DNA from: a virus
Lineage: Duplodnaviria; Heunggongvirae; Uroviricota; Caudoviricetes
DNA length: 9,359 bases
Strand: one strand, 5' to 3'
Virus record (IMG/VR): IMGVR_UViG_2541047443_000006
The translations under genes and the position numbers were made by a program. Under the pieces are notes generated by a model that was not told the DNA's origin, did not search any database, and saw nothing but the letters and a program-made list of their open reading frames with translations. Shown here piece by piece: positions 1 to 9,359 of this stretch. How positions within the stretch are numbered: position 1 is the first letter of the stretch; the number at the start of each line of letters is the position of its first letter.

Positions 1-39
1 CCAGGCATAAGTATCATGTGAAATCCAACTATCCTTCTG

Positions 40-82
40 AGCCAGCACCTCTCCACCGAAAGTCAGTGCTGGCTGTTTTTTT
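40..82 (+). terminator. Rho-independent terminator-like hairpin: perfect 9-bp stem with 17-nt loop, followed by a T7 run
   Basis: Seen in sequence: agccagcac (40-48) is the exact reverse complement of gtgctggct (66-74), followed by g + ttttttt (76-82). No T-run follows the stem on the minus strand, so it is oriented for + strand transcripts. No ORF of 60 aa or more in 1-430. Confidence 0.5.
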
Positions 83-287
83 CCTTAATAAAGCATCTGT
101 AACTGGTTGTTGTTCTGCGGGTTCTGTTCTTCGTTGACATGAGGTTGCCCCGTATTCAGTGTCGCTGATTTGTATTGTCTGAAGTTGTTTTTACGTTAAG
201 TTGATGCGGATCAATTAATACGATACCTGCGTCATAATTGATTATTTGACGTGGTTTGATGGCGTAGATGCACGTTGTGACATGTAG

Positions 288-304
288 ATGATAATTATTA
301 TCAT
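288..304. repeat. 17-bp perfect palindrome atgataat-t-attatcat, about 35-50 bp upstream of cosN; possibly in the cosQ region
   Basis: Seen in sequence: 288-304 is self-complementary around the central t at 296. Assigning it to cosQ is inference from its position relative to cosN; I do not recall exact cosQ coordinates. Confidence 0.4.
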
Positions 305-339
305 TTTGCGGGTCCTTTCCGGCGATCCGACAGGTTACG

Positions 340-351
340 GGGCGGCGACCT
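340..351 (+). other. cosN: cosN cohesive-end sequence GGGCGGCGACCT (12-nt 5' overhang of the lambda-type cos site); top-strand nick predicted between 339 and 340
   Basis: Seen in sequence: caggttacg (331-339) then gggcggcgacct (340-351), which matches the joined right and left termini of phage lambda as I recall them. Supported by the lambda-type terminase genes immediately downstream. Confidence 0.85.
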
Positions 352-387
352 CGCGGTTTTTCACTATTTATGAAAATTTTCCGGTTT

Positions 388-504
388 AAGGCGTTTCCGT
401 TCTTCTTCGCCGTAACCTAATGTTTTTATTTAAAACACCCCCTGAAAAGAAAGGAAACGACAGGTGCTGAAAACGGGCTTTTTGGCCTCTGTCGTTTCCT
501 TTCT
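388..504 (+). promoter_or_regulatory. cosB: cosB terminase small-subunit binding region: R3 (about 388-403), AT-rich putative IHF site I1 (about 411-440), R2 (448-463) and R1 (489-504)
   Basis: Seen in sequence: cgtttcc at 392-398 and 493-499, and its complement ggaaacg at 453-459. R2 and R1 form a perfect 16-bp inverted repeat (agaaaggaaacgacag 448-463 / ctgtcgtttcctttct 489-504). The R3-I1-R2-R1 layout is established for lambda cosB; the IHF site position is approximate. Confidence 0.75.
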
Positions 505-528
505 CTGTTTTTGTCCGTGGAATGAACA

Positions 529-1048
529 ATGGAAGTCAACAAAAAGCAGCTGGCTGACATTTTCGGCGCGAGTATCCGTACCATTCAGAACTGGCAGGAG
601 CAGGGAATGCCCGTTCTGCGGGGTGGTGGCAAGGGTAATGAGGTACTTTATGACTCTGCCGCCGCCATAAAATGGTATGCCGAAAGGGATGCTGAAATTG
701 AGAACGAAAAGCTGCGCCGGGAAGTTGAAGAACTGAGGCAGGACAGCGAGACAGATCTCCAGCCAGGGACTATTGAGTACGAACGCCATCGACTTACGCG
801 TGCGCAGGCCGACGCACAGGAACTGAAGAATGCCAGAGACTCAGCTGAAGTGGTGGAAACCGCATTCTGTACTTTCGTGCTGTCACGGATCGCAGGTGAA
901 ATTGCCAGTATTCTCGACGGGATCCCCCTGTCGGTGCAGCGGCGTTTTCCGGAACTGGAAAACCGACATGTTGATTTCCTGAAACGGGATATCATCAAAG
1001 CCATGAACAAAGCAGCCGCGCTGGATGAACTGATACCGGGGTTGCTGA

Positions 1049-1074
<26 letters not shown>
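529..1074 (+). CDS. nu1: Terminase small subunit gpNu1 (181 aa), with N-terminal winged-HTH DNA-binding domain that recognises the cosB R elements
   Basis: ORF 529..1074; the translation (MEVNKKQLADIFGASIRTIQNWQEQGMPVLRGGGKGNEV...) matches lambda gpNu1 almost residue for residue from memory. Same length as lambda Nu1, positioned directly downstream of cosB. TAA stop at 1072-1074 overlaps the A gene. Confidence 0.95.
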
Positions 1075-4755
<3,681 letters not shown>

Positions 4756-4775
<20 letters not shown>

Positions 4776-6075
4776 TCTCCCGCATATTGCCAGCATGGCT
4801 TTTAATGAGCCGCTGATGCTTGAACCCGCCTATGCGCGGGTTTTCTTTTGTGCGCTTGCAGGCCAGCTTGGGATCAGCCGCCTGACGGATGCAGTATCCG
4901 GCGACAGCCTGACTGCCGGAGAGGCACCCGCGGCGCTGGCGTTATCCGGTGATGATGACGGACCACGACAGGCCCGGAGTTATCAGGTCATGAACGGCAT
5001 CGCCGTGCTGCCGGTGTCCGGTACGCTGGTCAGCCGGACGCGGGCGCTGCAGCCGTATTCGGGAATGACCGGTTACAACGGCATTATCGCCCGTCTGCAA
5101 CAGGCTGCCAGCGATCCGATGGTGGACGGCATTCTGCTCGATATGGACACACCGGGCGGGATGGTGGCGGGAGCATTTGACTGTGCTGACATCATCGCCC
5201 GTGTGCGAGACATAAAACCGGTATGGGCGCTGGCCAACGACATGAACTGCAGTGCAGGTCAGCTGCTTGCCAGCGCCGCCTCCCGGCGTCTGGTCACGCA
5301 GACCGCCCGGACAGGCTCCATCGGCGTCATGATGGCTCACAGTAATTACGGTGCTGCCCTGGAGAAACAGGGCGTGGAAATCACGCTGATTTACAGCGGC
5401 AGCCATAAGGTGGATGGCAACCCCTACAGCCATCTACCGGGTGATGTCCGGGAAACACTGCAGTCCCGGATGGATGCAACCCGCCGGATGTTTGCGCAGA
5501 AGGTGTCGGCATATACCGGCCTGTCCGTGCAGGCTGTGCTGGATACCGAGGCTGCAGTGTACAGCGGTCAGGAGGCCATTGATGCCGGACTGGCTGATGA
5601 ACTTGTCAACAGCACCGATGCGATCACCGTTATGCGTGATGCACTGGATGCACGTAAATCCCGTCTCTCAGGAGGGCGAATGACCAAAGAGACTCAATCA
5701 ACAACTGTTTCAGCCACTGCTTCGCAGGCTGACGTTACTGGCGTGGTGCCAGCGACGGAGGGCGAAAACGCCAGCGCGGCGCAGCCGGACGTGAACGCGC
5801 AGATCACCGCTGCGGTTGCGGCAGAAAACAGCCGCATTATGGGGATCCTCAACTGTGAGGAGGCTCACGGACGCGAAGAACAGGCCCGCGTGCTGGCAGA
5901 AACCCCCGGTATGACCGTGGAAACGGCCCGCCGCATTCTGGCCGCAGCACCACAGAGTGCACAGGCGCGCAGTGATACTGCGCTGGATCGTCTGATGCAG
6001 GGGGCTCCGGCACCGCTGGCTGCAGGTAACCCGGCATCTGATGCCGTTAACGATTTGCTGAACACACCAGTGTAA
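4756..6075 (+). CDS. C: Head maturation protease gpC (439 aa; S49/ClpP-like serine peptidase family), GTG start inside the B 3' end
   Basis: The long ORF 4621..6075 contains gtg at 4756-4758 preceded by gaggaggag (4743-4751), giving MTAELRNLPHIASMAFNEPLMLEP... as in lambda gpC (439 aa). Overlaps B by 20 nt. The upstream part of the ORF track entry (4621-4755) is rejected as a spurious extension. Confidence 0.9.
5470..6075 (+). CDS. nu3: Scaffolding protein gpNu3 (201 aa), translated from an internal in-frame ATG within C, sharing C's C-terminus and stop
   Basis: ATG at 5470-5472 is in frame with C (5470 minus 4756 = 714 = 238 codons); translation begins MDATRRMFAQKV. Coordinates match lambda Nu3 (lambda 5132..5737) at the same offset as neighbouring genes. 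No obvious strong SD is seen upstream. Confidence 0.8.
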   Translation: MDATRRMFAQKVSAYTGLSVQAVLDTEAAVYSGQEAIDAGLADELVNSTDAITVMRDALDARKSRLSGGRMTKETQSTTVSATASQADVTGVVPATEGENASAAQPDVNAQITAAVAAENSRIMGILNCEEAHGREEQARVLAETPGMTVETARRILAAAPQSAQARSDTALDRLMQGAPAPLAAGNPASDAVNDLLNTPV

Positions 6076-6084
6076 GGGATGTTT

Positions 6085-6417
6085 ATGACGAGCAAAGAAA
6101 CCTTTACCCATTACCAGCCGCTGGGCAACAGTGACCCGGCTCATACCGCAACCGCGCCCGGCGGATTGAGTGCGAAAGCGCCTGCAATGACCCCGCTGAT
6201 GCTGGACACCTCCAGCCGTAAGCTGGTTGCGTGGGATGGCACCACCGACGGTGCTGCCGTTGGCATTCTTGCGGTTGCTGCTGACCAGACCAGCACCACG
6301 CTGACGTTCTACAAGTCCGGCACGTTCCGTTATGAGGATGTGCTCTGGCCGGAGGCTGCCAGCGACGAGACGAAAAAACGGACCGCGTTTGCCGGAACGG
6401 CAATCAGCATCGTTTAA
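6085..6417 (+). CDS. D: Head decoration protein gpD (110 aa)
   Basis: ORF 6079..6417 in the track; the second in-frame ATG at 6085 gives [12 protein letters not shown]... as in lambda gpD (110 aa), with aaggga (6074-6079) 5 nt upstream. TAA stop at 6415-6417. Confidence 0.92.
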
Positions 6418-6437
6418 CCTGACCCTTCATCACTAAA

Positions 6438-6459
6438 GGCCGCCTGTGCGGCTTTTTTT
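6438..6459 (+). terminator. D-E intergenic hairpin: GC stem gccgc / gcggc with ctgt loop, followed by a T7 run; terminator-like or attenuator-like
   Basis: Seen in sequence: gccgc (6439-6443), loop ctgt (6444-6447), gcggc (6448-6452), then ttttttt (6453-6459). Lies between the D stop (6417) and the E start (6473). Confidence 0.45.
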
Positions 6460-6472
6460 ACGGGATTTTTTT

Positions 6473-7498
6473 ATGTCGATGTACACAACCGCCCAACTGC
6501 TGGCGGCAAATGAGCAGAAATTTAAGTTTGATCCGCTGTTTCTGCGTCTCTTTTTCCGTGAGAGCTATCCCTTCACCACGGAGAAAGTCTATCTCTCACA
6601 AATTCCGGGACTGGTAAACATGGCGCTGTACGTTTCGCCGATTGTTTCTGGTGAGGTTATCCGTTCCCGTGGCGGCTCCACCTCTGAATTTACGCCGGGA
6701 TATGTCAAGCCGAAGCATGAAGTGAATCCGCAGATGACCCTGCGTCGCCTGCCGGATGAAGATCCGCAGAATCTGGCGGACCCGGCTTACCGCCGCCGTC
6801 GCATCATCATGCAGAACATGCGTGACGAAGAGCTGGCCATTGCTCAGGTCGAAGAGATGCAGGCAGTTTCTGCCGTGCTCAAGGGCAAATACACCATGAC
6901 CGGTGAAGCCTTCGATCCGGTTGAGGTGGATATGGGCCGCAGTGCGGCGAACAACATCACGCAGTCCGGCGGCACGGAGTGGAGCAAGCGTGACAAGTCC
7001 ACGTATGACCCGACCGACGATATCGAAGCCTACGCGCTGAACGCCAGCGGCGTGGTGAATATCATCGTGTTTGACCCGAAAGGCTGGGCGCTGTTCCGTT
7101 CCTTCAAAGCCGTCAGGGAGAAGCTGGATACCCGTCGCGGCTCTCATTCCGAACTGGAGACAGCGGTAAAAGACCTGGGCAAAGCGGTGTCTTATAAGGG
7201 AATGTATGGCGATGTGGCCATCGTCGTGTATTCCGGACAGTACGTGGAAAACGGCGTCAAAAAGAACTTCCTGCCGGACAACACGATGGTGCTGGGGAAC
7301 ACTCAGGCACGCGGTCTGCGCACCTATGGCTGCATTCAGGATGCGGACGCACAGCGCGAAGGCATTAACGCCTCTGCCCGTTACCCGAAAAACTGGGTGA
7401 CCACCGGCGATCCGGCGCGTGAGTTCACCATGATTCAGTCAGCACCGCTGATGCTGCTGGCTGACCCTGATGAGTTCGTGTCCGTACAACTGGCGTAA
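6473..7498 (+). CDS. E: Major capsid protein gpE (341 aa)
   Basis: Track ORF 6446..7498; the ATG at 6473 gives MSMYTTAQLLAANEQKFKFDPLFLRLFFRESYPF..., matching lambda gpE (341 aa). The upstream M at 6446 would read through the D-E hairpin and is rejected. Confidence 0.95.
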   Translation: MSMYTTAQLLAANEQKFKFDPLFLRLFFRESYPFTTEKVYLSQIPGLVNMALYVSPIVSGEVIRSRGGSTSEFTPGYVKPKHEVNPQMTLRRLPDEDPQNLADPAYRRRRIIMQNMRDEELAIAQVEEMQAVSAVLKGKYTMTGEAFDPVEVDMGRSAANNITQSGGTEWSKRDKSTYDPTDDIEAYALNASGVVNIIVFDPKGWALFRSFKAVREKLDTRRGSHSELETAVKDLGKAVSYKGMYGDVAIVVYSGQYVENGVKKNFLPDNTMVLGNTQARGLRTYGCIQDADAQREGINASARYPKNWVTTGDPAREFTMIQSAPLMLLADPDEFVSVQLA

Positions 7499-7500
7499 TC

Positions 7501-7525
7501 ATGGCCCTTCGGGGCCATTGTTTTT
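7501..7525 (+). terminator. E-FI intergenic hairpin: perfect 7-bp stem with a UUCG tetraloop, followed by tgttttt
   Basis: Seen in sequence: atggccc (7501-7507), ttcg (7508-7511), gggccat (7512-7518), then tgttttt (7519-7525). Starts 3 nt after the E stop codon. Confidence 0.5.
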
Positions 7526-7539
7526 CTGTGGAGGAGTCC

Positions 7540-7938
7540 ATGACGAAAGATGAACTGATTGCCCGTCTCCGCTCGCTGGGTGAACAACTGAACCGTGATG
7601 TCAGCCTGACGGGGACGAAAGAAGAACTGGCGCTCCGTGTGGCAGAGCTGGAAGAGGAGCTTGATGACACGGATGAAACTGCCGGTCAGGACACCCCTCT
7701 CAGCCGGGAAAATGTGCTGACCGGACATGAAAATGAGGTGGGATCAGCGCAGCCGGATACCGTGATTCTGGATACGTCTGAACTGGTCACGGTCGTGGCA
7801 CTGGTGAAGCTGCATACTGATGCACTTCACGTCACGCGGGATGAACCTGTGGCATTTGTGCTGCCGGGAACGGCGTTTCGTGTCTCTGCCGGTGTGGCAG
7901 CCGAAATGACAGAGCGCGGCCTGGCCAGAATGCAATAA
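7540..7938 (+). CDS. FI: DNA packaging / head assembly accessory protein gpFI (132 aa)
   Basis: Track ORF 7501..7938; the ATG at 7540 preceded by ggaggag (7531-7537) gives MTKDELIARLRSLGEQLNRDV..., matching lambda gpFI. The extension back to 7501 would read through the hairpin and is rejected. Confidence 0.92.
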   Translation: MTKDELIARLRSLGEQLNRDVSLTGTKEELALRVAELEEELDDTDETAGQDTPLSRENVLTGHENEVGSAQPDTVILDTSELVTVVALVKLHTDALHVTRDEPVAFVLPGTAFRVSAGVAAEMTERGLARMQ

Positions 7939-7949
7939 CGGGAGGCGCT

Positions 7950-8303
7950 GTGGCTGATTTCGATAACCTGTTCGATGCTGCCATTGCCCGCGCCGATGAA
8001 ACGATACGCGGGTACATGGGAACGTCAGCCACCATGACATCCGGTGAGCGGTCCGGCGCAGTAATACGTGGTGTTTTTGATGACCCTGAAAATATCAGCT
8101 ATGCCGGACAGGGCGTGCGCGTTGAAGGCTCCAGCCCGTCCCTGTTTGTCCGGACTGATGATGTGCGGCAACTGCGGCGTGGTGACACGCTGACCATTAA
8201 CGGCGAGATGTTCTGGGTGGACCGTGTTTCTCCGGATGACGGAGGGAGTTGTTATCTCTGGCTCAACCGTGGGCAACCACCGGCAGTTAACCGGCGACGA
8301 TAA
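7950..8303 (+). CDS. FII: Head-tail connector / head completion protein gpFII (117 aa), GTG start
   Basis: ORF 7950..8303 with gtg at 7950-7952 preceded by gggagg (7940-7945); translation MADFDNLFDAAIARADETIRGYMGTSAT... matches lambda gpFII (117 aa). The C-terminal third appears more diverged from lambda than the N-terminus (from memory). Confidence 0.9.
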   Translation: MADFDNLFDAAIARADETIRGYMGTSATMTSGERSGAVIRGVFDDPENISYAGQGVRVEGSSPSLFVRTDDVRQLRRGDTLTINGEMFWVDRVSPDDGGSCYLWLNRGQPPAVNRRR

Positions 8304-8317
8304 ACGCAGGGTGAATT

Positions 8318-8851
8318 ATGGCGATAAAAGGGCTTGATCAGGCGATTGAAAATCTGAGCCGGGTTCGTAAAAACGCCATTCCGGCGGCTTCAGCAATGGC
8401 CATTAACCGCGTGGCCACAACGGCGATTAATCAGTCTTCATCACAGGTTGCCCGGGAGACAAAGGTACGCCGGAAACTGGTAAAGGAACGGTCCAGACTG
8501 AAACGGGCCACGGTCAGAAATCCGAATGCCAGAATTATCGTTAAACGCGGTGATCTCCCTGTGATTAAGCTGGGGATCAGGATGCTGGGCCGTCGTCCGG
8601 ACAGCATACTTAAAGCTGGTCAGCATCGGTATCAGCGGGCATTTATCCAGCGATTAAAAAATGGTCGCTGGCATGTCATGCAGCGTGTGGCCGGGAAAAA
8701 CCGTTACCCCATTGATGTGGTGAAAATCCCGATGGCGGCCCCACTGAAACAGGCGTTTGATGAGAATATTGACCGTATCCGGCGTGAACGTCTGCCCGGA
8801 GAACTGGCATACGCGCTGAAACAACAACTTAGGATTGCGATAAAACGATGA
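8318..8851 (+). CDS. Z: Tail completion protein gpZ homolog (177 aa), a diverged allele relative to lambda gpZ
   Basis: ORF 8318..8851 in the position of lambda Z; the N-terminus (MAIKGL...) and C-terminal half (...RLKNGRWHVMQRVAGKNRYPIDVVKIPMA...) resemble lambda gpZ, but the protein is 177 aa against 192 aa as I recall for lambda. ATGA overlap with U at 8848-8851. Confidence 0.85.
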   Translation: MAIKGLDQAIENLSRVRKNAIPAASAMAINRVATTAINQSSSQVARETKVRRKLVKERSRLKRATVRNPNARIIVKRGDLPVIKLGIRMLGRRPDSILKAGQHRYQRAFIQRLKNGRWHVMQRVAGKNRYPIDVVKIPMAAPLKQAFDENIDRIRRERLPGELAYALKQQLRIAIKR

Positions 8852-9243
8852 AACATACTGATATCCGTGCGGCAGTGCTGGATGCACTGGAGCTGCATGA
8901 ACACGGGGCGACGCTGTTTGATGGTCGCCCCGTTGTTTTTGACGAAGAGGATTTTCCGGCCGTCGCGGTTTATCTGACGGATGCAGAGTATACCGGTGAA
9001 GAGCTGGATGCAGATACCTGGCGGGCCACACTGCATATTGAGGTGTTTTTACCGGCACAGGTACCGGATTCGGAGCTTGATCAGTGGATGGAAAGCCGGA
9101 TTTATCCGGCGGTGACTGCGATCCCGGCACTGGCAGACCTGATTACGACGATGGTTACGCAGGGCTATGAGTATCGTCGTGATGACGATATGGCGTTATG
9201 GAGTTCTGCGGATCTGACTTATTCCATTACATACGAGATGTGA
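8848..9243 (+). CDS. U: Tail terminator protein gpU (131 aa)
   Basis: ORF 8848..9243; 131 aa as in lambda gpU, with recognisable but not identical sequence ([15 protein letters not shown]...[10 protein letters not shown]). Confidence 0.88.
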
Positions 9244-9250
9244 GGACGAT

Positions 9251-9359
9251 ATGGCAACACCAAATCCCCTTGAGCCGGTAAAAGGTGCCGGTACCACTCT
9301 GTGGGTTTACAACGGCAAGGGTGATGCTTATGCAAACCCGTTGTCAGACGATGACTGGC
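9251..9359 (+). CDS. V: Major tail tube protein gpV, 5' partial (first 36 codons; runs off the window end)
   Basis: ATG at 9251-9253 preceded by gagga (9242-9246); translation [36 protein letters not shown] resembles the lambda gpV N-terminus ([10 protein letters not shown] core). The position after U matches lambda gene order. Not in the ORF track because no stop falls inside the window. Confidence 0.8.

Follow-up and report, generated by a model that had tools for sequence, protein, structure and literature searches.

We are highly confident that the window analysed here, a 9,359-nt stretch of DNA, holds a complete cos site of lambda specificity (cosQ-cosN-I2-R3-I1-R2-R1) between the late/lysis end and the terminase genes nu1-A of a temperate lambda-like genome, most probably an integrated prophage of an O157:H7-like E. 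coli. The main argument is base-for-base identity with the experimentally dissected lambda site, rather than counts of motifs. A cos of this type is already known, ordinary and very common, and its recognition matters little beyond annotation, where it marks the place at which the ends of the virion DNA would lie. Cleavage of this cos and its binding of IHF would be expected from near-identity to lambda; the element itself may be inducible.

The lambda reference (NC_001416), with both ends joined right to left, was globally aligned to window positions 1-1140, and the cos subsites were mapped by definitions from the work of Feiss and Murialdo (PMC4669245, PMC4856287 and PMC9026076; Table 1). 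The alignment places lambda bp 48502 on window position 339 and lambda bp 1 on position 340; the right-end homologue upstream is 95.7% identical to lambda (235 bp, ungapped), and window 340-9358 shares 94.7% identity with lambda 1-9062. Since the homology to lambda runs unbroken over 339|340, the two genome ends are joined inside the window, in agreement with an earlier note on this DNA, made from the letters alone, which had read right-end sequence as contiguous upstream and cosB and nu1 as lying downstream. The lambda-type cosN nick that it had set near 339/340 also falls where the alignment puts the 48502|1 junction, and the strings it quoted are present: positions 331-351 read CAGGTTACG|GGGCGGCGACCT, with CAGGTTACG ending at 339. 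Its span for the whole site, 290-510, is slightly narrower than the equivalent of the experimental cos fragment, lambda 48446-182, which was used with its cosQ, cosN and cosB in pOER plasmids (PMC4856287).

Over the 238 bp of the full cos the window is 94.5% identical to lambda, differing by 13 substitutions and a 1-bp deletion, none of them in the named protein-contact elements. I2 accounts for two of the substitutions and the R3-R2 interval for five; the stretch from R2 to R1 holds one more, together with the deletion. In this way, the comparison with lambda cos that had been proposed as a check mapped each subsite, and cosQ, cosN, the cohesive-end sequence, R3, R2 and R1 all proved identical to their lambda counterparts, with the same cosN-R3 spacing.

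Table 1. Features of the window and their lambda equivalents.
Feature	Position	Strand	Description
Left flank	1-104		Other mosaic module, outside cos; all lambda-like matches begin at 105
Terminator-shaped hairpin	40-74	+	GCCAGCAC...GTGCTGGC, then T-run 75-83
Lambda right-end homologue	105-339	+	Lambda bp 48268-48502
Full cos	283-520	+	Lambda 48446-182, mapped via the alignment
cosQ	310-316	+	GGGTCCT; 7/7 identical to lambda 48473-48479, without indel up to cosN
cosN	335-356		22/22 identical to lambda 48498-17
Cohesive-end sequence (predicted)	340-351	+	5' overhang of the left end, GGGCGGCGACCT; 12/12 identical to lambda bp 1-12
I2	357-389	+	Bent, AT-rich spacer that separates cosN from cosB; lambda bp 18-50
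R3	389-404	+	Critical TerS (Nu1) binding site; lambda bp 50-65, identical
I1 region	405-447		Putative IHF-binding/bent segment between R3 and R2, by positional homology to lambda
R2	448-463	-	TerS binding site, opposite to R3/R1; reverse complement CTGTCGTTTCCTTTCT, same as lambda R2 and as R1
R1	489-504	+	Accessory TerS binding site; CTGTCGTTTCCTTTCT, identical to lambda
nu1	529-1074	+	Terminase small subunit (TerS), 181 aa; start equivalent to lambda bp 191
A	1049-2974	+	Terminase large subunit (TerL: ATPase motor and cos endonuclease), 641 aa
W, B (portal), C/Nu3, D, E, FI (packaging chaperone), FII, Z, U	2971-9243	+	Intact, in lambda order

cosQ is the site needed for the termination of packaging. 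Its lambda coordinates in Table 1 are presumably those of Wieczorek & Feiss 2001. In an alignment of the cos region with eight phage records, lambda among them, and a further O157 prophage type (Sp4-like), cosQ is kept in 10 of the 10 sequences, and hardly any variation is seen in cosQ, cosN and the three R elements of those with lambda specificity; a cosQ of 7 bp is described as highly conserved (PMC4669245). Ten of the 22 cosN positions are self-complementary, and a size of about 22 bp with partial twofold symmetry has been reported for cosN (PMC4856287, PMC9026076). The predicted cohesive-end sequence has a single exact match in the whole window, and the record of phage DE3 labels the homologous 12 bp 'cos site'. 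A 33-codon open reading frame on the plus strand (288-389), whose homologue in phage Kati (56-157) is listed as a hypothetical protein, spans cosN; it is probably a spurious gene call, because virion DNA would be cut inside it. An Rfam scan returned no family, and a promoter/terminator scan of positions 1-700 remained at background level, the sites within cos (338-353 and 475-488) being taken as chance or structural.

The I2 spacer keeps its 33 bp without an indel relative to lambda, is 79% A+T, and carries single-base changes at 357 (G>T, lambda bp 18) and 363 (G>A, lambda bp 24). These are the sole bases of the window's cos that went unseen in the compared phages: the pair 357T/363A occurs in 0 of the 8 phage records aligned and not in the Sp4-like prophage, and is present in the O157 chromosomal prophage allele. 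I2 acts early after recognition, and replacement of the whole of I2 is lethal in lambda (PMC4856287).

Next, we examined cosB, for which the earlier note had described three cgtttcc-type R elements with R2 inverted. CGTTTCC lies at 392 (+), 453 (-) and 493 (+), and a repeat finder agreed with this arrangement, returning R3/R1 as a direct pair and R3/R2 and R2/R1 as inverted pairs. The whole-window count of the motif is four, a value reached in 19 of 200 shuffles and so unremarkable by itself; as this count is not significant, a clustering simulation was used instead, in which three copies within 120 bp arose in 9 of 20,000 Markov-1 runs, indicating unusual clustering. R3, the extent of which follows PMC9026076, is identical to lambda throughout the contacted bp 55-63, including the genetically defined bp 56/58/59. 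The R2-R1 spacer has the shorter length left by its deletion in 7 of the 7 other phage records as well. The R3-R2 interval, substituted at its five positions without an indel, is about 88% identical to lambda, and the I1 region within it is base-identical to that of the Stx1a phage Stx1_9793. The claim that an AT-rich segment for IHF lies between R3 and R2 stood as to composition (63% A+T over 406-446 vs 44% for the whole window), whereas its IHF site is given by position: the consensus WATCAANNNNTTR with up to two mismatches gave 44 matches against 52 expected in the window, and is thus unenriched and non-discriminating, although IHF-like cores occur at 413-425 and 418-430 (-). As the scan is uninformative, the site in I1 is placed by its positional homology to lambda.

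The genes downstream of the site are counterparts of lambda genes. Nu1 is identical to the lambda protein at 177 of 181 residues, including all of residues 1-45, and the Pfam family Phage_Nu1 is recorded for the exact protein. Because the differences are confined to residues 46, 72, 75 and 132, the recognition helix (17-24) and the wing (31-39) are unchanged. Packaging specificity has been attributed to the recognition helix of TerS (17-24, including E24), its wing (31-39) and bp 56/58/59 of R3 (PMC9026076, PMC4669245), and in the window both the helix and wing of Nu1 and R3 bp 55-63 are those of lambda. The large subunit gpA shares 635 of 641 residues (99.1%) with lambda gpA, and Pfam GpA_ATPase and GpA_nuclease (PF05876, PF20454) are recorded for the exact protein, so that a lambda-type rather than a headful large terminase, as the earlier note had expected, is confirmed. 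The proteins from W to FI are full length and 97.9-99.1% identical to those of lambda, and the gene order from Nu1 to U within the window is the same. A mosaic boundary is visible near the head-tail joining genes (7950-9243), where identity to lambda falls from about 98-99% (Nu1-FI) to 92% for FII, 69% for Z (177 aa vs 192) and 81% for U.

Given this near-identity, and following the lambda literature, gpA would be anchored on cosN and would introduce nicks offset by 12 bp (top strand 339/340, bottom strand 351/352), leaving 5' GGGCGGCGACCT overhangs. The terminase would then stay on the end bearing cosB, dock on the portal and translocate the DNA until a terminating cut, guided by cosQ and cosN, is made at the next cos. 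In a prophage the cos lies internally because integration at att permutes the map, and it would be idle until excision and replication, or until a helper of lambda specificity cuts it in trans.

The source of the window was assessed by comparison with sequenced genomes. A chromosomal prophage of the O157:H7 strain Gim1-1 (CP038344), like many others, shares 99.8% identity with window 105-9359; the Gim1-1 prophage has 19 mismatches over 9255 bp, none of them over 105-884, which contains all of cos, and its gpA is identical. That prophage (2793735-2829443) adjoins icd, carries int/xis and is bordered by bacterial genes at either end. On the far flank lies a partial ydfJ, and a chromosomal rearrangement at a prophage is possible. 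An exact copy of the 238-bp cos is present in 15 retrieved O157 chromosomal loci, with a 100% match in strain PV15-279 also, and exact-protein look-ups placed gpA and Nu1 in chromosomal contexts of the order O-P-nin-Q-lysis-bor-cos-nu1-A...tail, the bor-ylcI-nu1 context being the only type returned. Counting matches that cover at least 80% of the 238-bp query, 73% of complete E. coli genomes (3971 of 5426) carry a lambda-type cos, almost always on the chromosome; for all this frequency, the cos sites are unannotated in RefSeq E. coli genomes, where no annotated feature lay under cos among the matches listed.

Taken together, the identical alleles in chromosomal O157:H7 prophages, the integration beside icd and the high prevalence make an integrated lambdoid prophage with the packaging specificity of lambda, perhaps a defective one, the likeliest source, and they favour the prophage among the four origins that the earlier note had offered (a prophage, a circularised or a concatemeric replicative form, or an assembly joined across the ends). 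It is very unlikely that the window instead represents phage, replicative or circular DNA, or an assembly circularised or permuted so that cos became internal. Such an origin would fit the window itself, in which there is no att site, integrase or bacterial gene, and many GenBank records of lambda-like phages hold cos internally (at about 20 kb in PhiR* records, for example), so that an internal cos alone does not exclude a permuted phage assembly. However, the best cos match in a phage record reaches 97.1%, against 100% in chromosomal prophages that extend at 99.8% over 9.25 kb, and the exact junction at the left edge of the window is absent from IMG/VR.

The prophage origin bears on whether the site is still in use. 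The Gim1-1 prophage has a truncated O and no immunity region (cI/cro/N), and therefore looks defective; emrE and a serine recombinase lie in its nin region. Compared by description, its profile resembles that of Sakai Sp8, which is without cI/cro and has intact morphogenesis, and for which no excision, replication or packaging was detected (PMC2669165, Asadulghani et al.). These features of the relatives, together with the two I2 bases missing from the phage records in a segment of functional importance, are what speaks for a cos that is complete yet effectively a relic, either in a defective, non-inducible prophage or through I2 changes that hamper an early packaging step. We nevertheless consider this unlikely, as no subsite whose sequence requirement is known departs from lambda, the length and AT-richness of I2 are kept (lambda G18T extends a T-tract), and the intactness of Nu1, A and all head genes at about 98-99% identity argues against long neutral decay; moreover, defective O157 prophages have been packaged in trans by others (PMC2669165).

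To the left of position 105 the window belongs to a different module. Bases 1-105 are 100% identical, on the opposite strand, to H-19B and an Stx1a phage, in the region upstream of the holin gene, and bases 1-104 match on the same strand the Sp4-like O157 prophage, whose S-R-Rz lysis cassette abuts cos in inverted orientation. By comparison, the Gim1-1 prophage has ylcI-ybcW-ybcV-bor and a forward lysis cassette to the left of the equivalent of window position 105, where the window has the module associated with the inverted cassette. The 104/105 junction is a mosaic or inversion breakpoint lying within ylcI, a gene that in the closest relative overlaps 105-140. Small open reading frames over the junction do not discriminate between the two prophage types. 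The hairpin in this flank, with a run of seven T after the stem, has a folding energy of -17.1 kcal/mol over 40-83 (z = -3.4); being co-directional with nu1, it would face plus-strand transcription entering cos from the left.

The left edge is either a natural recombinant of co-resident prophages or an assembly chimera formed via a shared stretch, and in both cases cos is unaffected. A chimera of co-resident Sp4-like and Sp8-like prophages at the 1-104/105 join is a real if somewhat doubtful possibility. The window equals the Sp4-like locus over 1-207 and from 208 onwards agrees with the other prophage type (alleles 208G, 240G, 357T, 363A), both types co-occur in the same genomes (CP022689, CP016755 and CP017669, for example), and the exact junction (60-250) was found neither in 5426 complete E. 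coli genomes, where the best match is 99.4%, nor in GTDB representative genomes, IMG/VR or JGI metagenomes. On the other hand, there is ample documentation that the lambdoid prophages of O157 recombine (PMC2669165), and a natural recombinant would have the same appearance. We attach very little weight to a further proposal, that the paired I2 changes might alter early packaging and that, separately, the window may record a natural recombinant of an Sp4-like inverted lysis flank with an intact cos and terminase of lambda specificity; if true, this widespread, I2-altered prophage cos would be cut or packaged unlike that of lambda, for example only in trans or with changed efficiency. The reading given above, a complete cos of lambda specificity, holds for either origin of the left edge.

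Finally, the site was set against related cos types. The Stx1a phage Stx1_9793 is homologous to the window only from about position 289, just left of cosQ, and its cosB is base-identical to that of the window. The Sp4-like prophage (CP030767) shares the 1-104 flank and cosQ-cosN-I2 up to position 384, but beyond this it has an unrelated cosB with repeats of its own (20385-20560 of the CP030767 locus), ATGTCCGGTT followed by AACCGGACAT twice, and another terS that is split by ISEc8; furthermore, it has G at lambda bp 18 and 24, where the window has T and A. Its cosB may be phage-21-like. In the Sp4-like prophage the specificity module cosB/terS has been cleanly exchanged where I2 meets R3, and disruption of nu1 in Sp4 has been described (PMC2669165). 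According to the Feiss laboratory, lambda, 21 and N15 have strong conservation of cosQ, cosN and I2, while cosB and TerS set the packaging specificity (PMC4669245); the homology boundaries at about 289 and at 384 agree with these modules, a common cosQ-cosN-I2 and a specificity-setting cosB/TerS.

The element is accordingly assigned the packaging specificity of lambda, not of 21 or N15, and from this one can predict the helper phages or PICIs that would be able to mobilise it in EHEC strains, with their pool of multiple prophages. Specificity of the phage 21 kind was ruled out by the R sequences and the Nu1 helix, which are those of lambda, and a cosmid vector or PICI by the 9 kb of lambda head genes and the full cosB downstream of the site. 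Both N15-type and PICI cos have a conserved cosQ and cosN with lambda-like cohesive ends (PMC4669245, PMC9026076). The N15-type simple cos has a single R3, without I1, R2 and R1, and was ruled out by the presence of R2 and R1 in the window. The cos of PICIs is without lambda R sequences and has rpp in place of terS, whereas the window has the lambda R sequences together with a full-length nu1.
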